From contig JBBQZW010000001.1 of the NCBI GenBank assembly GCA_038207395.1, forward strand, positions 142,862-206,861: 64,000 nt of DNA. The letters are read 5' to 3'. Positions 6,240 to 62,245 of this stretch are shown in pieces. This DNA is from Minisyncoccia bacterium. Lineage in GTDB: Bacteria > Patescibacteriota > Minisyncoccia > Phycocordibacterales > Phycocordibacteraceae. A program made the translations under genes and the position numbers. The notes below the pieces were generated by a model. That model searched no databases, was not told the DNA's origin, and saw only the letters and a program-made list of their open reading frames with translations. Position 1 is the stretch's first letter. Each line of letters opens with the position of its first letter.

Positions 6240-6344
6240 ATACGTTTATTGTAGAACGACCAGATAAAAGCACAAGTGCGACTGCCGTAGGCAGTCGCAC
6301 TTGTTTCTTGTCTAGCAGGGAAGTGAGCTCCCTGTTTTATTCTT

Positions 6345-25758: not shown

Positions 25759-25812
25759 CGCCCTTCGTTAGAACGAAAACCAAACTTCGTTCTAACGAAG
25801 GGCGGTTTTCTT
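25759..25812. terminator. Long perfect inverted repeat that may act as a bidirectional terminator between convergent genes.
   Basis: CGCCCTTCGTTAGAACGAA...TTCGTTCTAACGAAGGGCG followed by a T-run. Confidence 0.65.
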
Positions 25813-33294: not shown

Positions 33295-33726
33295 CTACTG
33301 ACTCTGCGCGCCTGAAGCTCCGTACCACGTCTTTTGCCATGCTTTCATTTGAGCGATTTCAGAATTCTGTGCAGTAATAATATTTTGCGCAAGATCTTTC
33401 ACTTCCTGATGCTTTGCATCCCGAAGCGCAGCCTGTGCCATAACAACAGCTCCTTCATGGTGGGTAGTCATCTCGCTAAGAAAGGCTTTATCAAATGCAT
33501 CCCCAGTCTTTCCTTCGAGTGCGGCCATCATACCGTCCATGCTTTCGTGCATACTCATTTCATCGTTCCCCATTTTGTCATGCATCATCATTTCATCAGA
33601 CATTGAGTGCTCCATACTCATTTCATTATATCCAGCCTGAGAAACCATAAGACCTCCTGCTGCTCCAAGTCCAATACCAAGCACTGCTGCCATCACAATC
33701 TTAATATCAATGTTTTTTGTGTTCAT
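33295..33726 (-). CDS. DUF305 domain protein with a Met/His-rich N-terminal region (paralog A).
   Basis: TM anchor, Met-rich stretch MSMEHSMSDEMMMHDKMGNDEMSMHESMDGMM, then TTHHEGAVVMAQ... (DUF305). Confidence 0.7.
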   Translation of the reverse strand: MNTKNIDIKIVMAAVLGIGLGAAGGLMVSQAGYNEMSMEHSMSDEMMMHDKMGNDEMSMHESMDGMMAALEGKTGDAFDKAFLSEMTTHHEGAVVMAQAALRDAKHQEVKDLAQNIITAQNSEIAQMKAWQKTWYGASGAQSQ

Positions 33727-43796: not shown

Positions 43797-43813
43797 TATT
43801 TAAAAAACTAGAG

Positions 43814-43855
43814 CAATAACCCCATTTGGATTAAATGGGGTTATTGCGTATTATT
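43814..43855 (+). terminator. Rho-independent terminator.
   Basis: AATAACCCCATTTGGA-tt-AAATGGGGTTATTG hairpin. Confidence 0.6.
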
Positions 43856-45836: not shown

Positions 45837-45879
45837 TCTACATACAAAAAGAACCCTAATCGGGTTCTTTTTGTATGTA
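45837..45879 (-). terminator. Perfect 19-bp inverted-repeat hairpin that terminates the HMBD-MauE gene.
   Basis: CTACATACAAAAAGAACCC-taatc-GGGTTCTTTTTGTATGTAG. Confidence 0.6.
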
Positions 45880-45895
45880 GCTAATAATCCAAGTC

Positions 45896-46576
45896 TTACT
45901 GAAGGAGTAGGAGAAGTATCCCTGCCAGGGCTGCCATCCCAAAATCCTCAATAAGAGTTACGTACGTTAGTGGGACTTTTAGGAATGTGCCGAGGCATGA
46001 GCAGATGAATTCTTCCTTCCGTGCAATCTTGATTGCAACTCCAATTCCGCTGAATACCATAACCATCAGTTCAATCCAGAGGAGGAAGGGTGTATGAATT
46101 CCCGCAACCATAAGTAGACCAAAGGTAAGTTCAACGAACGGATAGACATAGCCGTAGACGAACCACCGCTGTGCAAGCAAGTCATAGGTTGAGTACCCTT
46201 CTGCAAAACCTTTAAGATCAATCAGCTTAAAGCCTGCAAACACGAGAAAGAATCCAGCCATGAAGTATTCAAGCGAGCGTGAGAACATAAATACTCCCTT
46301 AGCCTGGTCTGCGAGTGATGCAGCGGTAGTTGCCGCTAGAAGCAGACTGAATATGACGATAAGTGGCATGTAGCTTTTCCAGGTGATCGGACCCAAACCT
46401 TTGTCACTACCGATTGCTTTTGGTTTCGCATTCACTGATTGTTCAGGCACGAGCGCCATACCACATTTTGGACATCGTCCTGGCAGCTCCTGCCGCACAT
46501 CGGTATGCATCGGACAGATATACATACTAGAGTAGACTATTGCGCTGTAGAACCTCCGTACCATTGCTTCTGCCAT
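45896..46576 (-). CDS. Fusion of a heavy-metal-binding domain (HMBD, YxCPMH...CPKCGM) to a MauE/DoxX-like membrane domain. The probable start is near 46525.
   Basis: MYICPMHTDVRQELPGRCPKCGMAL, then about 5 TM helices. Confidence 0.6.
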   Translation of the reverse strand: MAEAMVRRFYSAIVYSSMYICPMHTDVRQELPGRCPKCGMALVPEQSVNAKPKAIGSDKGLGPITWKSYMPLIVIFSLLLAATTAASLADQAKGVFMFSRSLEYFMAGFFLVFAGFKLIDLKGFAEGYSTYDLLAQRWFVYGYVYPFVELTFGLLMVAGIHTPFLLWIELMVMVFSGIGVAIKIARKEEFICSCLGTFLKVPLTYVTLIEDFGMAALAGILLLLLQ

Positions 46577-46947
46577 GATTGCATTTCAGCTATTTCTTTA
46601 TTTTGAGCAGTTATGATTGCCGTAGCAAGATCTTTTATTTCCTGATGCTTAGCGTTTGTAAGTGCAAGTTGTGCCATTTCTACAGCACCTTGGTGGTGAA
46701 CAGTCATTTCCGTAAGGAAGGCTTGATCAAAGGAATCACCTGTCTTTCCTTGGAGCGCAGCATTCATGGCACTCATCTCACCGTGCATACTCATACTTTC
46801 CCCTCCCATCATCTCTCCATTTGCCATTTGATGCTGCATCGCCCCTTTCTCAGATACACTATTTTTCTCGATGGACGCATATACGCCTCCACCCCCAACG
46901 ATTAGACCTACCAGTACTCCGACGATAACTTTTGAATTTGTATTCAT
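46537..46947 (-). CDS. DUF305 domain protein with a Met-rich N-terminal region (paralog B).
   Basis: MQHQMANGEMMGGESMSMHGEMSAM, then TVHHQGAVEMAQLALTNAKHQEIKDLATAIITAQNKEIAEMQSWQ. It parallels the paralog at 33295-33726. Confidence 0.7.
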   Translation of the reverse strand: MNTNSKVIVGVLVGLIVGGGGVYASIEKNSVSEKGAMQHQMANGEMMGGESMSMHGEMSAMNAALQGKTGDSFDQAFLTEMTVHHQGAVEMAQLALTNAKHQEIKDLATAIITAQNKEIAEMQSWQKQWYGGSTAQ

Positions 46948-55821: not shown

Positions 55822-56874
55822 CTATTGTCCTCTTTCCAGAACCTCTTGCACTCGGCCTTTTAATTTCAAGGTATTTCCATGCCTCAATAAGCCCAGATAA
55901 GACTGGATTGTTTCACTCTTAACTCCATTCTCGTGTATAGATTTGAGCATGCGTTTCTTAGTCGTAGTACGCAGAGTCCTGTGGTAAGGAAAATGTACCC
56001 AACCAAGAAAATCTATTCCTGACGATACGGTCGCAATAGAAACCTTCAACGGATGGATGGTAAGTCGTAATCTCTCCATGAGGAATGCTTCAATAAGGGG
56101 AAGTTGCGTTTCAAGCGACGCTCTATCTGAAGAGAGGAGCACAAAATCGTCTGCATAGCGCATATAGTATTTAGCCCTTAACATATGCTTCGCGAAATGA
56201 TCGAACTCGTTCATATATACGTTCACGAGGAGTTGGCTCGTGAGATTCCCGAGCGGTAGTCCGACGCCCTTTCTTGTGGAAGAAAAGCTTTCGATAATTT
56301 GGGACAATAACCAACAGATATCCTCATCTGGAATATAGCTCTGAATAATCGAAGTAAGGATGCCGTGATCTATAGATGCGAAGAATTTTCGGATGTCACA
56401 TTTCAGCACCCACCCCGTCTTTGTATAGTTCTTGGAAACCTTACCAGAGAAACGATTGAATCGTTCGAGGGCTTTATGGACACCTTTATTATCTCGGCAT
56501 GAATAGGAGTCAGCGATAAACGTCCGATCGAAGAACGGATAGAGCTTCCGATACAACGCGTGATGCAGAAGTCGATCACGCACACTCGCCTTATGAATAT
56601 CGCGTGGCTTCGGATCAGATATCTTGAATGCCCAATACTCAGAGTGACGGTAGATCTTGCTAGCAAGGTCGTCTCGGAGTCTCAGAATGTTATCCATGAG
56701 ATTCTCCTCAAATTCCCGCACGTCGGTGCGACTCCGCTTCCCCGAAGCGAACTCACGCCATGCTTCGAGCAGGTTTTCTAGCGAAATGATATCGTGATAG
56801 GAACTACTTGATTGAATTTTATTAGGAACATGGAACGTACCCCCCCCCCGAGACTTTTGCCAGTTATTGAGCAT
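55822..56874 (-). CDS. Diversity-generating retroelement (DGR) reverse transcriptase.
   Basis: 350 aa. It has RT motifs including YADD (MRYADDFVLL) and the DGR-specific LPLGNLTSQLLVNVY motif, which replaces the QGxxxSP of retron and group II RTs. It lies 350 nt from a TR/VR pair with adenine-specific mismatches. Confidence 0.9.
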   Translation of the reverse strand: MLNNWQKSRGGGTFHVPNKIQSSSSYHDIISLENLLEAWREFASGKRSRTDVREFEENLMDNILRLRDDLASKIYRHSEYWAFKISDPKPRDIHKASVRDRLLHHALYRKLYPFFDRTFIADSYSCRDNKGVHKALERFNRFSGKVSKNYTKTGWVLKCDIRKFFASIDHGILTSIIQSYIPDEDICWLLSQIIESFSSTRKGVGLPLGNLTSQLLVNVYMNEFDHFAKHMLRAKYYMRYADDFVLLSSDRASLETQLPLIEAFLMERLRLTIHPLKVSIATVSSGIDFLGWVHFPYHRTLRTTTKKRMLKSIHENGVKSETIQSYLGLLRHGNTLKLKGRVQEVLERGQ

Positions 56875-57204
56875 GCTGTTTCAGTATATAAGCTCTGGTA
56901 TGAGTATCGAGACCATTTCCCAAAGAAATCTCGCTATACGCTGGGCGACCGGATAGACCTAGTTTTCATACAGCTCGTGGAATTGCTGTGGGCAGCAGGG
57001 TACCAGGCGAAAGATGAGAAGCTCCCCACCATAGCAGCCGCGATACGGAAATTAGACGGTCTTAAATTTTTGCTTCGTATTGCGTGGGAAATTCAGATTC
57101 TCGATAGCACGAAGTACGCCTCCCTGTCTGAACCTCTCTTTGAGATCGGGAAGATGCTTGGCGGTTGGCGAAAAGGCATAGAAACGAAAACTCCCACACG
57201 TTAA
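56812..57204 (+). CDS. avd: Accessory variability determinant (Avd)-like four-helix-bundle protein. It is divergent from the RT, its 5' end overlaps it, and the start is uncertain.
   Basis: It resembles the TIGR02436 four-helix-bundle / 23S rRNA IVS protein family (FPKKSRYTLGDRIDLVFIQLVELL ... LSEPLFEIGKMLGGW). It sits between the RT and the TR. Confidence 0.6.
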   Translation: MNFIRNMERTPPPRLLPVIEHAVSVYKLWYEYRDHFPKKSRYTLGDRIDLVFIQLVELLWAAGYQAKDEKLPTIAAAIRKLDGLKFLLRIAWEIQILDSTKYASLSEPLFEIGKMLGGWRKGIETKTPTR

Positions 57205-57227
57205 GTGCGGGAGAACCGTGGGAGTTT

Positions 57228-57340
57228 CGAGAGAACGCTCGATTACCGGCATTCCAGTTGTCATCGTCCAGCTTCCACGTGTTGACGTTCCACTTCCGAT
57301 CGTCGCCGTTCCAGTTGACGTTGACGACATAGCCTGCGAC
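57228..57340 (-). repeat. DGR template repeat (TR), 113 nt.
   Basis: It matches 57686-57798 at 99 of 113 positions. All 14 mismatches fall where the minus strand of this copy has A, so this copy is the adenine-bearing template. An in-frame translation reads AGYVVNVNWNGDDRKWNVNTWKLDDDNWNAGNRAFSRN, rich in AAC codons. Confidence 0.88.
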
Positions 57341-57634
57341 TCTCGTACCTAGCGCCATCTGTGCCACCATCCGTTGAGTACTCTCCGGACTGAATAGTAT
57401 TTGGGACGTCGAAGTCCTCCAGCGTTAGATACCAACTACCAAGATTTTTTATAAAATTCCGGGCGCATGCTTTCTCAAGCCGTAGCCGGAGAGATTCGAG
57501 CCCACGGAATTCCAGAGTCCCTATGCCTAAGCCAATAGCCGAGACATCACCAAGAACTCAATACCAGTATACAAAATAAAAATCCCTCGGATTTCAAAGA
57601 TACAAAGTATCAAAGAGATAAGAGAGATTTCGGT

Positions 57635-57664
57635 GGCGAGTCTGGCCGGATTGCCAGACTCGCC
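57635..57664 (-). other. GC-rich 12-bp stem hairpin 22 nt downstream of the VR (DGR target-recognition hairpin/cruciform candidate).
   Basis: GGCGAGTCTGGC-cggatt-GCCAGACTCGCC, a perfect inverted repeat. Confidence 0.65.
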
Positions 57665-57678
57665 CAAGATGTTCAGGT

Positions 57679-58209
57679 TCAGTTGCGAGAGAACGCTCGA
57701 CCACCGGCATCCCAGTTGACAACGCCCAGCTCCCACGTGTAGACGTCCCACCTCCGACCGCCGCCGTACCAGTTGACGTCGACGACATAGCCTGCGACGT
57801 AGAACAGGTTCGCATAGCCGTTGTTGAGGAGGTCGCCCGCCTCGCCATTGGGTTGCTTGCTGATCATCTGGTCGATGCGAGCGCACAGCTCGGACTCGTC
57901 GAAGATGTAGTCCTCGCCGAGGCCGGGCGTGATCTCGCGATCGTAGGCGTTTTTCGTCAGCTCGCGCGAGATGAGGGTCAACGAGTCGAGGCTTTCGACC
58001 GGCTTCGCCTTCGAGCGCACACGCGACACGAAGTCGTCGGAGACCCAGACACCCTTGCGGGTTTTGAGAGCCGACGGGTCGTAGGTCGCAATGGCGTCGA
58101 GCGAGACACTGTCGTTGATCAGCTTCAGCACAGCAGGCTTGGGAGCCTGCTGTGCTGAAGCTGATTCGGAAGCCCCGAGCGCAGAACGCTCTTGAGATGG
58201 GCTTCCCAC
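57679..58209 (-). CDS. DGR target (variable) protein with a C-terminal VR. The 5' boundary is uncertain: the GTG start has no obvious RBS and the ORF overlaps an upstream ORF.
   Basis: It is a 176-aa ORF whose last ~37 codons are the VR. The alternative-frame Arg-rich ORF 57527..58219 is rejected. Confidence 0.75.
   Translation of the reverse strand: MGSPSQERSALGASESASAQQAPKPAVLKLINDSVSLDAIATYDPSALKTRKGVWVSDDFVSRVRSKAKPVESLDSLTLISRELTKNAYDREITPGLGEDYIFDESELCARIDQMISKQPNGEAGDLLNNGYANLFYVAGYVVDVNWYGGGRRWDVYTWELGVVNWDAGGRAFSRN
57686..57798 (-). repeat. DGR variable repeat (VR), 113 nt, at the extreme C-terminus of the target gene.
   Basis: It is the variable partner of the TR. At the 14 TR-adenine positions it carries G (10 times) or T (4 times). 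It encodes ...AGYVVDVNWYGGGRRWDVYTWELGVVNWDAGGRAFSRN*. Confidence 0.88.
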
Positions 58210-58322
58210 GCCGCGCCATTTTCGCCGGTGAACCGGTTCATGACGTCGAGCGACAGGTTGACTTGGGGTTGGGACAGATTGACCGAAGCCCGCACGAGCG
58301 AGCCGAGCATGTCTTTGGACAT
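58125..58322 (-). CDS. Small ORF with a strong RBS (AAAGGAG-N7-ATG) that overlaps the 5' end of the target ORF. It may be the true N-terminus of a frameshifted target gene or a separate small gene.
   Basis: It reads MSKDMLGSLVRASVNLSQ.... An 85-nt out-of-frame overlap with the 176-aa ORF spans a 19-bp perfect palindrome. Confidence 0.35.
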   Translation of the reverse strand: MSKDMLGSLVRASVNLSQPQVNLSLDVMNRFTGENGAAWEAHLKSVLRSGLPNQLQHSRLPSLLC

Positions 58323-58547
58323 GGTCTATTCTCCTTTAGGGAGCACGCTGTACAACGAATTCGGATGGTTCCCGATTCGCCACAGCAGGAGGAGCCCTAA
58401 AATAAGGCGCTTTCTGCTGTGGCGAACTGCAACTGAATATCAAGGAACTAGTCTGTACCACTTTATCACGATATGATGATAAAGTCAAGTAGCACGCGAC
58501 TCTTTTTAGTCTACACGCGGCAATGGGGTTAGAAACTCATAAGACTG

Positions 58548-58949
58548 TTGAAATGGGCTTATAATTACGCTATGCCAAAGAAACGCGTCGTCATTCTCAC
58601 AGATTTAGCCCTTCACACTCGGGCTGGCCAGCCTACGGCGAGTTTTGCACGTGCTGAGGAGAAGGCTATAGCTGAAAACAAGCTTGGACGTGTGTATGGA
58701 AAGCTCGCTAAGCCAAAGCCCGAAGATATAGACGAGAAGACCCATACGATTAAATTCCGTATTGATCTCCCACCAGACCTAATGGAACAAGTGCAGAGGG
58801 GCGAAGTAGAACTTGCCATGCCCGAAGGAGGGCTGCCTATTTATGTTGGGAAAGATACTCAGGAATTCATGCAGAACATGAATCGCAAGGAGCGTCGACG
58901 CCAGCAATTCAAGAAACACGGCACGAAGACTTGGCGGCCAAAAAGGTAG
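58548..58949 (+). CDS. Hypothetical basic protein (phage-associated region). The probable start is near 58572.
   Basis: No domain call. It is the first plus-strand gene of the phage-like module. Confidence 0.35.
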   Translation: MKWAYNYAMPKKRVVILTDLALHTRAGQPTASFARAEEKAIAENKLGRVYGKLAKPKPEDIDEKTHTIKFRIDLPPDLMEQVQRGEVELAMPEGGLPIYVGKDTQEFMQNMNRKERRRQQFKKHGTKTWRPKR

Positions 58950-59102
58950 TGCTATACTGTAGGAACAATTGAATATACAAGTGGTGCCGTACGCATGTCC
59001 CGCCCACTTCGTTGAGAGAGCCTGAATTCGTCAGCATAGCTGATTAGTTGAGACTTCCCTGCGAAGTGGGCTTTCTCGTTATCTACCTAATAAGTAACGA
59101 GC

Positions 59103-60386
59103 ATGAATAAACTATCTTGGACAACAATCCAAAAACGCGTAAACGATCTGATTCCCCAGGAGATCAACCCTCGCAAGATCACCGACAAACAAATGTCGGA
59201 CCTGAAGCGAAGCCTTAAGAAGTTCAATCTGGTGGAAATCCCCGCCGTGGATTATGACGGCACGATATTAGCAGGACATCAGCGTATCAAGGCTCTCCAG
59301 CTTCTTGGTCGCGGAGATGAGATGATCGACATCCGAGTACCTAATCGCAAACTAACCGAGAAAGAGTCTAAGGAATACCTGATCGGCTCCAACAAACTTG
59401 GTGGAGATTGGGACTTCGACATTCTGAAATCATTTGAACTCGATACGCTCTCGTTCGCAGGATTCGACGACCTTGAGCTTTCTAAGTTCTGGGACACTGA
59501 TAACGAAACTAAGGAGGACGCGTTCGACGTTGAGAAGGAGTTGAAGAAGATCATAGAACCGAAGACAAAGCTCGGTGACATTATTCGTCTTGGTAATCAC
59601 AAGATTCTTTGTGGCGACTCGACTGACCCGAAGAATCTTGCACGGCTTCTAGGGAGCGAACGCGCCAGCATGATCTACTCAGATCCCGTCTACAACATCT
59701 CTATCGACTACGACGGAGGCATTGGCGGTAAGAAGGATTACGGAGGAAACGTAAACGACACGCGCACCTACGAGGAATACAAGACTTTCATCAAGGAAAG
59801 CCTCGCTGCCGCGCTCGCCGTAGCAGACCCCAACACCCATATCTTCTACTACTGTGATCAGGTCTATATTGGCTTGATACAGGAAATTTACCGATCGCTC
59901 GGCATCGCTAACAAGCGGGTGTGCCTGTGGCTCAAGAACTCACAGAACCCAGTGCCGAAGGTGTACTGCAACAAGGCATATGAACCAGCCGTATACGGCA
60001 CGCGTGGAAGACCATACCTCGCGGAAGCCGTAAGCAATCTCAACGAGGTTATGAACAAGGAGTTCGGTACGGGAAACGAGCTTGTGGCGCAGGTGGACGA
60101 CTTCCTCGAGATCTGGACGGCAAAGCGACTTGCCGCGAAGGACTACAAGCACGCGACCTCAAAGCCGATCACACTCCACGAGAAAGCCATAAAGCGATGT
60201 ACCAGACCAAACGAAATCATTCTCGATAGCTTCCTGGGTTCAGGCAGTACCCTGCTTGCCGGAGAACAGCTTGGACGACGCGTGTACGGATGTGAGCTTG
60301 AGCCACGCTTCTGCGACCTAATCGCGATTAGGTTCGAGGCACTTACTGGAACCAAGCCAGTCATCGAACACCATGAAAAAGAATAA
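59103..60386 (+). CDS. ParB-like nuclease domain fused to an N6/N4 DNA methyltransferase (phage-type).
   Basis: ParB N-domain (INPRKITDKQMSDLKRSLKKFNLVEIPAV), methyltransferase motif IV SDPVY and motif I ILDSFLGSGST. Confidence 0.8.
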   Translation: MNKLSWTTIQKRVNDLIPQEINPRKITDKQMSDLKRSLKKFNLVEIPAVDYDGTILAGHQRIKALQLLGRGDEMIDIRVPNRKLTEKESKEYLIGSNKLGGDWDFDILKSFELDTLSFAGFDDLELSKFWDTDNETKEDAFDVEKELKKIIEPKTKLGDIIRLGNHKILCGDSTDPKNLARLLGSERASMIYSDPVYNISIDYDGGIGGKKDYGGNVNDTRTYEEYKTFIKESLAAALAVADPNTHIFYYCDQVYIGLIQEIYRSLGIANKRVCLWLKNSQNPVPKVYCNKAYEPAVYGTRGRPYLAEAVSNLNEVMNKEFGTGNELVAQVDDFLEIWTAKRLAAKDYKHATSKPITLHEKAIKRCTRPNEIILDSFLGSGSTLLAGEQLGRRVYGCELEPRFCDLIAIRFEALTGTKPVIEHHEKE

Positions 60387-60849
60387 ATTCCAGAAGCAGT
60401 TCTTGGACGAACTGCGGAAAGTACCGATCGTTCAAGTTGCGTGCGAGAAGACCGGCTTGTCTCGCAACAGTATCTATCGCTGGCGTAACGAAGATGCAGA
60501 GTTCCGCAAAGCTATGGAGGAAGCAATCGCCGAGGGTGAGGAACTTGTAAATGATATGAGTGAGGGTCAGCTACTCACACTTATCAAAGAGAAGAACTGG
60601 TCAGCGATTAGCTTCTGGCTTCGTAAGCGCAATCCCAAGTTCAAGGATCGCCTAGAGGTGGAAGTTGCACCTAAGCAAGAAGAACTCACGGAGGAACAGG
60701 AAGAGACTGTGCGTGAAGCTCTTCGACTTGCCTCTATGGATCCAACTATTAACCCTGTAACAGAAATCGACCATGGAACAGAACCCATTACCGACGCACC
60801 TGATGGAAACGATGCTGAAGGATCGGAAGGTCCGAACAGCGATCACTAA
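60373..60849 (+). CDS. Putative terminase small subunit (HTH).
   Basis: HTH segment ACEKTGLSRNSIYRWR and an acidic C-terminus. It is immediately upstream of and overlaps the large terminase gene. Confidence 0.5.
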   Translation: MKKNKFQKQFLDELRKVPIVQVACEKTGLSRNSIYRWRNEDAEFRKAMEEAIAEGEELVNDMSEGQLLTLIKEKNWSAISFWLRKRNPKFKDRLEVEVAPKQEELTEEQEETVREALRLASMDPTINPVTEIDHGTEPITDAPDGNDAEGSEGPNSDH

Positions 60850-62245
60850 AGAGAGCCATTGGTACTTCTTCCATTTCTACTTCGCTCACTATGTGAAGTA
60901 CCCGACCGCTCCTTTTCAAAAGGAGTTTATGGGGCTTTCAGAGCGCGAAGACGTGAAGAATCTCGTTGTGGTGGCCTTTCGCGGATCGGCGAAATCGACC
61001 ATCTTCACCATGTCCTATCCGATCTGGGCCATCCTCGGAAAGCAGCAAAAGAAATTCATTGTCATCCTGTCGCAAACACAGGCGCAAGCGAAACAGCATA
61101 TGATGAACCTTAGGCGTGAGCTTGAGGGTAATCCACTTCTCAAGAACGACCTCGGACCATTCCAAGAGGAGCGCAATGAATGGGGTGCAACTTCCCTTGT
61201 GTTCGGAAGGCATGGTGCTCGTATTACCGCCGTCTCAACGGAGCAGAGTGTTCGCGGCCTGCGTCATAATCAGCACCGGCCTGATCTCATAATAGGAGAC
61301 GACCTTGAAGATATTGCTTCCACAAAGACACGAGAGGGGCGTAATAAGACCTACGAGTGGCTAACGGGTGAAGTGATTCCTGCCGGAGACCGAAACACGC
61401 GCCTTATCGTGATCGGAAACCTTCTGCATGAGGATTCTCTCATTATGCGTCTACGCGAGGATATTGAGGGTAAAAGGATCGATGGAATGTTCAAAGCGTA
61501 TCCCCTTCTCGAAGGTCAGAAGATCTTATGGCCTGGAAAGTATCCGACAATGGAGGATATCGAGGAAGAGCAACGGAAAGCGGCAAACGATTACGCATGG
61601 CAACGCGAGTATCTTCTCAACATTGTTCCTGCGGAAGATCAGGTTATTGATCCGGCATGGATCCATTACTACGACGAGATTCCACCGCGCGTGCGGGTTT
61701 ATAGCGATGAGACTTACATGACGAATCTTGAAGTACGCATTGGTGTTGATCTGGCTATCTCGAAGCGCGATACCGCAGACTACACCGCGATGGTGCCAGC
61801 CCTCCTATACGAAAGGAAGAAGGGCTACGACATATACATTCTTCCGAAAATCATCAATAAGCGACTCTCATTCCCCGAAACTGTTGAGACGTGCAAGGTG
61901 ATAAACCAGTCGTACAAAGAGATCAAGGAATGGAACGGACCGGTGTTCGTGATTGAGGACGTAGCGTATCAAAGCGCCCTTCCCCAGCAGCTGAAGGCTG
62001 AAGGGCTCAGACAAATACACACAGTAAAACCGGGCAATGTAGATAAGCGCGCACGACTTATGCTGACCGCTAACCTTATCAAGACAGGAGTCGTAAAGTT
62101 TCCACGGCAAGGAGCCGAGCAATTAATTCAGCAGATAGTCCATTTCGGTGTTGAGAAACATGACGACCTTGCGGATGCATTCTCAGCTCTCGTCTTGGAC
62201 GCGATTGCAGAGCCTCCAAGAACCTTCCGGATCTTTATGCTCTAG
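60773..62245 (+). CDS. Phage terminase large subunit.
   Basis: Walker A AFRGSAKST, Walker B LIIGDDLED, and a C-terminal nuclease-like domain. 490 aa. Confidence 0.85.
   Translation: MEQNPLPTHLMETMLKDRKVRTAITKESHWYFFHFYFAHYVKYPTAPFQKEFMGLSEREDVKNLVVVAFRGSAKSTIFTMSYPIWAILGKQQKKFIVILSQTQAQAKQHMMNLRRELEGNPLLKNDLGPFQEERNEWGATSLVFGRHGARITAVSTEQSVRGLRHNQHRPDLIIGDDLEDIASTKTREGRNKTYEWLTGEVIPAGDRNTRLIVIGNLLHEDSLIMRLREDIEGKRIDGMFKAYPLLEGQKILWPGKYPTMEDIEEEQRKAANDYAWQREYLLNIVPAEDQVIDPAWIHYYDEIPPRVRVYSDETYMTNLEVRIGVDLAISKRDTADYTAMVPALLYERKKGYDIYILPKIINKRLSFPETVETCKVINQSYKEIKEWNGPVFVIEDVAYQSALPQQLKAEGLRQIHTVKPGNVDKRARLMLTANLIKTGVVKFPRQGAEQLIQQIVHFGVEKHDDLADAFSALVLDAIAEPPRTFRIFML

Follow-up and report, generated by a model that had tools for sequence, protein, structure and literature searches.

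Two overlapping open reading frames (ORFs) on the minus strand of the 64-kb stretch of DNA analysed here (the window) are, judged from their homologues, the two halves of a single gene of about 205–215 aa, the variable-protein (target) gene of a diversity-generating retroelement (DGR), which is broken by a −1 frameshift in its linker. The frame change lies inside one arm of a perfect 22-bp palindrome, and this arm was probably rewritten with the other arm as a template. A second palindrome, located upstream of the start codon, is by comparative evidence the main hairpin (P1) of a conserved leader, which precedes small DGR target genes across Patescibacteria and is separate from the frameshift. 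As far as Rfam 15 and the literature searched show, this leader is undescribed.

Two reading frames of one target gene

The following elements, all on the minus strand, form the interrupted gene.

58320–58337, minus strand: Shine-Dalgarno sequence AAAGGAG (58337–58331) with the ATG start codon (58322–58320), invariant in the A2 relatives
58322 to 58125, minus strand: ORF1, 65 aa, starting at the ATG
58209 to 57679, minus strand: ORF2, 176 aa, starting at a GTG with no ribosome-binding site (RBS), in a frame that has no stop upstream until 58338–58336
58166–58322, minus strand: intact coding sequence of the predicted N-terminal three-helix domain in the ORF1 frame, as far as ...SGLPNQ, of which NQ extends 5 nt into the first palindrome arm
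57679–58146, minus strand: coding sequence of the linker end and the predicted C-terminal C-type-lectin-like domain in the ORF2 frame, beginning at GCT CCC AAG and with the variable repeat (VR) at its end
57527–58219, minus strand: spurious ATG-initiated 230-aa ORF (P0203) in the third frame, which is the frame of no homologue

The ATG of ORF1 is placed 8 nt after AAAGGAG, and ORF2 overlaps ORF1 by 85 nt in the −1 frame relative to it. The coordinates of both ORFs, the good RBS at the ATG, its lack at the GTG and the extent of the overlap had all been given correctly in the original prediction, made from the letters of the window. When the conceptual fusion of ORF1 and ORF2 was used as a query, 81 homologues were found (E down to 1.6e-98), all called as single proteins, about 205–215 aa long and spanning both ORFs. 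At least 13 homologues of 199–217 aa cover 95–100% of the fused query, and the best identity reaches 72–77%. Across the junction the closest homologue reads ...LRSGLPNQPQSPPAPKPAVLKLVNDSV..., and the alignment of homologues indicates that both LPNQ, read in the ORF1 frame, and APKPAVLKLINDSV (APKPAVLKL), read in the ORF2 frame, are native. Therefore, the frame must change within the 14 nt CTTCAGCACAGCAG (58160–58147), which belong to the upstream arm of the palindrome. The two-frame split was seen in none of the 81 homologues; where they span the junction, they do so in a single frame. The suggestion of a frameshifted or pseudogenised target is thus upheld by homologues that are continuous across both ORFs and by a frame change that maps inside the upstream palindrome arm. 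The alignment to homologous DGR targets points to one continuous protein, and no independent two-gene layout was present among them.

The predicted architecture of the target protein comprises an N-terminal three-helix bundle, a linker rich in P, Q, S and A, and a C-terminal C-type-lectin-like domain ending in the VR. It was derived from the AlphaFold (AF2) model of the closest homologue, P0001 (pLDDT 91), in which the bundle occupies residues 3–49 (helices 3–14, 18–32 and 36–49) and is followed by a low-confidence linker (residues 50–65, pLDDT 60) and a compact alpha/beta domain. According to this model, the frame break falls in the low-confidence linker between two confident domains. The best fold matches of the C-terminal domain, for which the homologue model was used, were C-type lectin and FGE-like folds, including TvpA (2y3c), and a sequence search against solved structures gave no significant match. 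The N-terminal coding sequence aligns to homologue residues 1–56 and differs at 7 of 157 positions from that of L001, which served as the reference among the closest relatives whose DNA was aligned with the window (L001, L004 and L006).

The sole product on record for the target locus in the public protein collection is the 230-aa third-frame ORF, whose frame is open only because the target gene is GC-rich. The gene is compositionally foreign, with 61% GC, 83% GC at third codon positions and 6% A at third positions (57679–58322), as compared with 45% GC in the reverse transcriptase (RT) gene and 46% in the whole window. A similar contrast was observed in L004 (60% vs 47–49%). The target module may have spread horizontally, or adenines may have been selected against.

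The palindrome in the linker and the lost base

The palindrome that contains the frame change consists of three parts.

58144–58165, minus strand: arm 1, the presumably rewritten arm, with the frame change in CTTCAGCACAGCAG
58140–58143, minus strand: loop CCCA, invariant in all relatives and lying within the native codons GCT CCC AAG (A P K)
58118–58139, minus strand: arm 2, the presumed ancestral template arm, encoding KPAVLKLI in the ORF2 frame

The existence of this palindrome had been recognised in the original prediction; its size, given there as 19 bp, is however larger, since the arms are 22 nt long (58118–58165), 22 of 22 positions are complementary and the loop has 4 nt. Arm 2 contains the stop codon of ORF1 (TGA, 58127–58125) and the overlapping in-frame GTG (58131–58129). 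The palindrome is the longest perfect one in the window (loops of 3–10 nt), and perfect inverted repeats in 70 other target ORFs led by the conserved leader do not exceed 9 bp. The other long perfect palindromes of the window, of 19 bp (45838–45880 and 25759–25804) and 15 bp (43813–43847 and 6272–6304), all fall between listed ORFs of at least 110 aa and are probably terminators. A 22-bp palindrome inside a gene is therefore unusual.

Comparison with the closest relatives revealed that the differences are concentrated in one arm. Relative to L001, arm 1 differs in 7 of 23 columns, including the sole gap, the loop in none of 4 and arm 2 in 3 of 22, of which two are synonymous and one replaces V by I. 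Every difference in arm 1 makes this arm complementary to arm 2, and its length is 22 nt in the window and 23 nt in L001 and L004. The clustering of the changes in arm 1, their direction and the loss of one base are thus directly visible. Moreover, a hairpin in the same register, imperfect and with arms of 23 and 22 nt, is present in the closest relatives; its outer stem is ATCAGC/GCTGRT and its inner stem GGCT-CCCA-AGCC. The inner stem is kept in L001 and L004 (GACT in L006), and the outer one in L001 and L006 (ACCAGT in L004). The folding energies of this hairpin are −17.9 kcal/mol in L001, −22.4 in L004 and −6.8 in L006, and −44.5 kcal/mol in the window. The locus therefore combines what marks a quasipalindrome mutation, namely a same-register imperfect repeat in relatives and a mutant arm turned into an exact complement by clustered changes together with an indel.

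Quasipalindrome template-switch mutation is known from T4, yeast and E. coli. The template-switch model is said to have been put forward by Ripley for frameshifts in T4 rII and in yeast, and quasipalindrome hotspots in E. coli lacZ and thyA were reportedly studied by Lovett and colleagues. Like those mutations, the lesion in the window appears as an imperfect repeat perfected in one step, with clustered changes and an indel, an arm as the template and a coding frameshift as the outcome. Unlike the studied cases, it lies in the linker of a DGR target in a metagenome-assembled genome (MAG) of Patescibacteria, and its ancestor is reconstructed from relatives at about 75–80% protein identity and was not observed. 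It is considered probable that the changes in arm 1 arose in a single event. The starting state would have been an imperfect inverted repeat in the linker, within which the DNA polymerase would have switched template and copied the downstream arm (KPAVLKLI) in place of the upstream one. About 16 nt would have been rewritten at once, leaving a perfect palindrome of 22 bp and an upstream arm of 22 nt where there had been 23. Translation from the good RBS and ATG would then stop at the TGA (58127–58125), after 52 native residues and a 13-residue out-of-frame tail, and the C-terminal variable domain would be left without a proper start. As the RT, Avd, the template repeat (TR), the VR and the hairpin 3′ of the gene are all intact, the lesion seems to be recent.

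Some observations weigh against this explanation. The length of the linker varies among relatives, and the step from 23 to 22 nt is derived from L001 and L004 only. The linker of L006 is much shorter, 9 nt shorter still than that of the window, and forms hardly any hairpin. It is also slightly surprising that a population-consensus MAG should carry a broken sole target beside an intact DGR, which leaves some room for functional rescue. Finally, a template switch during sample processing or an assembly error would look identical to a mutation in the organism.

Such an artefact, by which the perfect palindrome and the lost base would stem from template switching in vitro (amplification or library preparation) or from misassembly while the gene of the organism is intact, is regarded as unlikely. 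The same hairpin-templated chemistry is possible in vitro, the DGR shows no damage elsewhere, neither the ORF1 nor the ORF2 product is present in the public collection, and the locus is carried by the source contig only. When the public protein collection was searched for exact matches to ORF1, ORF2, RT, Avd, GST and the 230-aa ORF, no independent copy was found, and a protein cluster look-up returned only the RT and the 230-aa ORF, both from the single source contig. The arm 1 sequence was absent from all 208 fetched loci and from viral contigs. One Logan contig (L208, run SRR19962014) is 100% identical to the window over 58204–60434 (2,231 nt) and ends 39 nt before the palindrome; with k = 31 this break lies outside any k-mer touching the palindrome and is therefore uninformative. 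On the other side, errors of this kind rarely become the consensus of a deep assembly and usually result in long inverted chimeras or fold-backs at contig ends, whereas here a clean replacement of 16 nt with unique flanks is situated mid-way in a 268-kb contig. The rest of the window is densely coding, with long uninterrupted ORFs and no sign of general indel errors. The clean internal replacement, the unique flanks, the long contig, the long intact ORFs elsewhere and the intactness of the remaining DGR all favour a real allele, and the frameshift is likely to be a real and recent one.

The broken gene could still retain full or partial function if the split were tolerated or exploited, which is improbable. 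Three routes can be envisaged. Along the first, a −1 slip on TCG GGG (58178–58173), stimulated by the 22-bp hairpin 7 nt downstream, would yield one 214-aa protein. The required shift is indeed −1, G GGG permits re-pairing in the P site, and the spacer of 7 nt and the hairpin stability of −44.5 kcal/mol suit such an event, as stimulatory structures are expected 5–9 nt downstream. In these respects the site resembles programmed −1 frameshifting in dnaX, insertion sequence (IS) elements and the phage tail genes G/GT, where a −1 shift is needed and a stable hairpin follows a slip-prone sequence. It differs from them in that a tandem slippery heptamer (X XXY YYZ) is missing, only the single-tRNA site TCG GGG CTT being present, and in that the two-frame layout is conserved in none of the 81 homologues. 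Moreover, GGG is merely one of the synonymous Gly codons (GGA or GGT in relatives), TCC GGG of L006 is unable to slip, and a slip at GGG would replace the conserved LPNQ. Along the second route, ribosomes would stop at the TGA and restart at the overlapping GTG (GTGCTGA, 58131–58125), giving the helical domain and a 150-aa lectin-like chain. The overlap of the GTG with the stop codon and the position of the break, in a linker modelled as disordered between two autonomous domains, speak for this route, and the lack of a Shine-Dalgarno sequence before the GTG speaks against it. Along the third, the palindrome would act as a reversible on/off switch, in which excision of one arm and the loop (26 nt) restores the frame. 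The deletion gives an in-frame product of 205 aa, and the linkers of P0003 and P0016 are equally short. As a true repair, however, the 26-nt removal was rejected: it restores the frame, yet both flanking peptides, LPNQ and APKPAVLKL, are native in homologues, and the lesion is thus a 1-nt loss in arm 1 and not a 26-nt insertion. Neither the split nor the hairpin occurs in any of the 81 homologues. The proposal that a programmed frameshift or translational coupling is an evolved feature of the locus is therefore not supported, given that there is no split homologue and no X XXY YYZ heptamer. An accidental rescue of the broken target is possible, and the arrangement of G GGG and hairpin is best regarded as accidental, with perhaps a little read-through.

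The degree of identity between the window and L001, L004 and L006 is mosaic over 57600–58500. At the DNA level most of the leader and the N-terminal domain are 90–100% identical, the C-terminal domain 70–84% (92% in one bin), and the 50–100 nt after the stop codon, including the 3′ hairpin, again 90–100% (L001 and L004). The identity begins to fall at the linker palindrome, a pattern suggestive of modules having been shuffled in the linker.

The leader upstream of the target gene

The palindrome at 58376–58426, reported in the original prediction just upstream of the ATG, is real and belongs to a series of elements preceding the gene.

58460–58488, minus strand: sigma-70-type promoter of the target gene, TTGACT, 17-nt spacer and TAAAGT, with TG upstream of the −10 element
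58438–58448, minus strand: conserved 5′ box GTTCCTTGATA, between the −10 element and the hairpin; family consensus about GTTCTTTGA
58376–58426, minus strand: leader hairpin P1, lower stem UUCGCCACAGC / GCUGUGGCGAA, upper stem covarying
58361–58375, minus strand: small second hairpin P2 (UCGG-GAACCAU-CCGA), whose pairing is kept in relatives while the sequence changes
58346–58353, minus strand: ACAGC box (GUACAGCG), a repeat of the core of the P1 5′ arm

In P1 the outer 13 nt pair perfectly, and the 24-nt arms are 83% complementary around a 3-nt loop. Its occurrence elsewhere was determined by a pattern scan of metagenome contigs for the exact lower stem (TTCGCCACAGC-N18-42-GCTGTGGCGAA). The pattern is present in at least 120 contigs, by sample names mostly from groundwater, peat and sediment, and in viral contigs it gave no match. 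A few pattern matches that are not leaders (L099, L122 and L197) were left out of the alignments; L099 carries several tandem repeats of the GCCACAGC/GCTGTGGC type at 2516–2640, and L122 and L197 represent GC-rich repeat contexts without a promoter or target gene. Among the matches listed, the order of promoter, box (about GTTCTTTGA), hairpin, spacer, RBS and ATG is constant, and the distance from hairpin to ATG is 38–98 nt in 76 of the 78 loci for which a start was called. The four A2 relatives (three distinct sequences) all have the same −35 box, and most of about 90 leader loci have a TTGACA/TATAAT-like pair at the matching position. The 5′ box forms conserved columns in alignment A3 and is also present in the independent genome loci described below.

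The genes that follow the leader link it to DGRs. They are mostly 180–250 aa long, and most of them are not detectable homologues of the target in the window; their C-termini nevertheless resemble variable regions. Of 57 evaluable loci, 33 have a TR 270–480 nt beyond the stop codon, with mismatches nearly confined to its adenines, and an RT gene lies 1.4–1.7 kb downstream of the hairpin in 19 of the 30 loci with at least 3 kb of downstream sequence, with an inverted avd between them. The loci without a nearby TR or RT are probably remote targets.

P1 is conserved in relatives, and the inner stem exhibits compensatory changes. Over the aligned leader loci, such changes were found in all 12 variable pairs. 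The proportion of paired cells was 94.3%, as against 80.3% in shuffles and about 45% in slid controls, and double-change cells numbered 231 vs 54. Since the lower stem had been fixed by the construction of the pattern search, a covariance model was run on independently chosen loci, that is, on 80 genome loci (about 700 kb) selected by target-protein homology alone. The model matches 19–20 of these 80 loci, always directly upstream of the gene and nowhere else in the about 700 kb, and in them covariation extends to the lower stem, which occurs as UUCGCCACAGC, UUUGCCACAGC, UUGGUCAUAGC and UUUACCAUAGC, the 3′ arm matching in every case. In the window the covariance model (CM R1) recognises this site only, with 76 bits on the minus strand, and scores better on the strand of the gene. 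The sense strand was 94.3% paired, compared with 89.9% for the antisense strand, and G.U cells outnumbered A.C cells (156 vs 64), which gives modest support to an RNA on the mRNA strand. The leader thus has what defines a structured 5′ untranslated region (5′ UTR), a structure supported by compensatory changes at a fixed position upstream of a gene class. An Rfam 15 search gave no match at E ≤ 1 except for a chance microRNA (22.6 bits, gathering score 82, E = 0.77), and in the literature searched no DGR-target leader element was found, the motif sequence occurring only in unrelated work, e.g., primers and viral genomes. An intrinsic terminator was rejected, as no T run follows 58376 and P1 comes after the promoter and before the RBS.

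On comparative grounds, the leader most likely acts as a sense-strand RNA controlling the stability, processing or translation of the target mRNA, probably through a protein that recognises the conserved lower stem. More elaborate behaviour is conceivable. The ACAGC sequence occurs in 29 of 81 spacers vs 7% in shuffles, an enrichment of about 4-fold, and corresponds to a near-invariant CAGC column in alignment A8; in relatives in which the stem reads CAUAGC, the downstream box becomes CAUAGU. An alternative structure could arise if the box paired with GCUGU in the 3′ arm of P1. It is tentatively proposed that the leader, composed of the 5′ box, P1 with its UUYGCCAYAGC lower stem, P2 and the ACAGC box, represents a new class of regulatory RNA dedicated to the DGR variable-protein genes of Patescibacteria, in which a protein or a small molecule would switch between P1 and the pairing of its 3′ arm with the ACAGC box. 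If so, the leader would set when hypervariable surface proteins are made and, where the TR is co-transcribed, also the timing of the DGR template RNA, and no cis-regulatory element linked to DGR targets would have been known before it.

Several points tell against the regulatory RNA. The exact-pattern search fixed the lower stem by construction, the sequences are phylogenetically related, so the shuffle statistics are inflated, and the preference for the sense strand is modest. For P2 and the alternative pairing, the support comes from visual inspection and from a single covarying position. The P2 stems of relatives (GGGA/UCCC, CGGAA/UUCCG, CCCU/AGGG, ACCUG/CAGGU and ACCCG/CGGGU) were read by eye, and RNAalifold on a whole-leader MAFFT alignment returned P1 only, P2 not being recovered (alignment noise). 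Sequestration of the Shine-Dalgarno sequence by the 5′ box was considered and discarded, as the native duplex (−7.27 kcal/mol) does not stand out from permuted (−7.45) and shuffled (−7.07) ones; the local CUCC...GGAG pairing amounts to only 4 bp.

A perfect 6-bp inverted repeat, CATGTC-CAAA-GACATG (58308–58323, minus strand), encloses the start codon and Met5 (MSKDM). The MSKDMLG peptide and its repeat are kept even in leader-led targets that are otherwise unrelated (L106, L150 and L185), which hints at a constraint at the RNA level or on targeting.

The upstream palindrome might instead act as double-stranded or cruciform DNA, as the operator of a dimeric factor or as a recombination or DGR-targeting site. 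An 11-bp inverted repeat conserved just downstream of a promoter occupies a classic operator position, DGRs already use a DNA hairpin beside the VR, and the antisense strand is still 89.9% pairable. However, the half-sites are separated by anything from 18 to 42 nt, and the intervening pairing is kept by compensatory changes, which would be expected of a folded single strand and not of a dimer bound to duplex DNA. The excess of G.U over A.C on the sense strand, the single orientation between promoter and RBS, the presence of the element before target-like genes without a nearby TR, and its distance of 0.6–0.7 kb from the VR are also at odds with a DNA site, and this alternative is considered quite unlikely.

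The original prediction had further proposed that the two palindromes share a core. CACAGCAGG occurs 3 times in the window, always in the two palindromes, against 0.38 expected, and this number was reached in 1 of 100 shuffles. Two of the three copies, however, are mirror images of each other, the upstream arm of the linker palindrome matching the core because it is now a mirror copy of the downstream arm. What remains is a match of 12 of 14 positions, with an exact 9-mer, between the P1 3′ arm and the PAVL codons CCT GCT GTG CTG of the downstream arm. Matches of at least 9 nt between a leader hairpin and its own ORF were found in 6 of 70 loci, compared with 7.6% for codon-shuffled ORFs, with the same distribution. 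The shared CACAGCAGG core is at chance level and is taken to be a coincidence. It is accordingly very improbable that the two palindromes are related sites for one CACAGCAGG/CCTGCTGTG regulator, or the ends of an inverted-repeat-flanked mobile insertion carrying the RBS and gene start. The 12 of 14 matching positions, and a 9-mer found nowhere else in 64 kb, would fit such a pair, but the relatives have the upstream hairpin without the internal palindrome, and in their internal segment fewer positions agree with the hairpin, about 10 of 14 in L001, with a poorer fit still in L004 and L006. The spacing between the shared cores differs as well (10 nt vs 25 nt). The segment between the palindromes is orthologous to, and 92–100% identical with, that of three relatives, with no target-site duplication and no extra DNA. 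From the idea of regulator sites sharing a core, the conserved upstream cis element is retained, while the internal palindrome is a private mutation. The small inverted-repeat-flanked insertion finds no extra sequence, as the locus is collinear with relatives and has one base fewer than L001 and L004. An insertion resembling a miniature inverted-repeat transposable element (MITE) was rejected for the lack of added DNA in this collinear alignment. An inverton or recombination-site reading was also rejected, as the intervening segment (RBS, ATG and N-terminal domain) is collinear and near-identical in relatives.

The leader, for which a regulatory RNA is the favoured reading, has counterparts among known systems. 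It shares with riboswitches and orphan 5′ UTR leader motifs its position and a possible alternative pairing. The RT-1 to RT-19 motifs adjoin the RT gene, between TR and RT, RT-10 being that of the BPP-1 DGR (Weinberg et al., 2017, PMC5737381). The leader resembles these motifs in being conserved, covarying, DGR-linked and found by comparative analysis, and differs from them in preceding the target gene. The hairpin/cruciform of DGR target recognition downstream of the VR, reported by Guo et al. (2011, PMC3240598), is likewise a conserved inverted repeat linked to DGR targets, and its equivalent in the window lies at 57635–57664. P1 differs from this element in its position at the opposite end of the gene, between promoter and RBS, and in its sequence.

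The retroelement, its surroundings and the meaning of the results

The remaining parts of the DGR lie downstream of the target gene.

55822–56874, minus strand: DGR RT, 350 aa, YADD motif, Pfam RVT_1 E = 2.4e-21
56812–57204, plus strand: bAvd accessory gene, Pfam PF22296, E = 7.7e-15, on the strand opposite to RT, TR and target
57223–57340, minus strand: TR, 118-nt core
57681–57798, minus strand: VR, 87% identical to the TR over the 118-nt core
57635–57664, minus strand: perfect 12-bp hairpin (GGCGAGTCTGGC / GCCAGACTCGCC), 15 nt after the stop codon of the target

All 15 mismatches between TR and VR fall at TR adenines, and a single VR matches the TR within the window. The RT is of the DGR type, and its relatives, detected by tblastn, adjoin TR/VR pairs in about 30 loci. 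The hairpin occupies the position of the DGR target-recognition hairpin, to which its role would correspond, and its region is 96–100% identical to L001 and L004. The cassette thus contains an RT, an adenine-specific TR/VR pair, Avd and a hairpin just 3′ of the VR; what it lacks is an intact target, since the gene with the VR at its 3′ end is split by the −1 frame change at 58147–58160. It resembles the cassettes of Bordetella phage Mtd and Treponema TvpA in its YADD RT, its Avd-family gene and the 118-nt TR/VR with adenine-only mismatches. The VR at the extreme C-terminus and the GC-rich hairpin just after it are further shared traits, and the fold of the C-terminal domain may be another, its best matches in the homologue model being C-type lectin/FGE-like. 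A blastn search of the cassette against phage DNA gave no match. The orientation of avd is opposite to that of RT, TR and target, and 63 nt of it are shared with the start of the RT gene, so that RNA from the stretch between TR and RT is antisense to avd. The same inverted arrangement recurs in L004 and about 30 other loci.

The window is part of a Patescibacteria chromosome of Parcubacteria/Paceibacterota-like affiliation. Its genes include those for GroEL, RNase J, a histidine kinase, a P-type ATPase and transporters. The RNase J matches a protein of a 268-kb NCBI contig at 100% identity, and the next relatives are named Parcubacteria or Patescibacteria. Phage-like genes begin at 59.1 kb (59103–62245, plus strand), directly adjoining the DGR, and include an N6/N4 DNA methylase (by Pfam), a likely terminase (60773–62245) and a likely small terminase subunit, the latter two judged by eye from the translation. 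The DGR may therefore sit at the edge of a prophage, yet viral contigs gave no match to the leader motif. Two direct repeats of about 250 nt (33305–33558 and 46541–46794, 74% identity) lie 13.2 kb apart; the reference copy falls within an ORF (33295–33726), and the repeats are probably paralogous gene ends.

The target locus is mis-called in public data, where its sole product is a 230-aa ORF in the wrong frame, and a DGR survey relying on it would miss or mis-describe the target. As the likely outcome of a hairpin-templated event, the locus offers a clean natural example of a multi-base mutation knocking out a gene in an uncultivated bacterium. An event of this type looks like a number of independent substitutions and can distort estimates of divergence or selection. 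The frameshift itself belongs to an ordinary class of event, though its location is unusual, and the leader is the more useful result. It provides a testable handle in the lineages where DGRs are most abundant and could serve as a sequence tag for remote target genes far from any RT.

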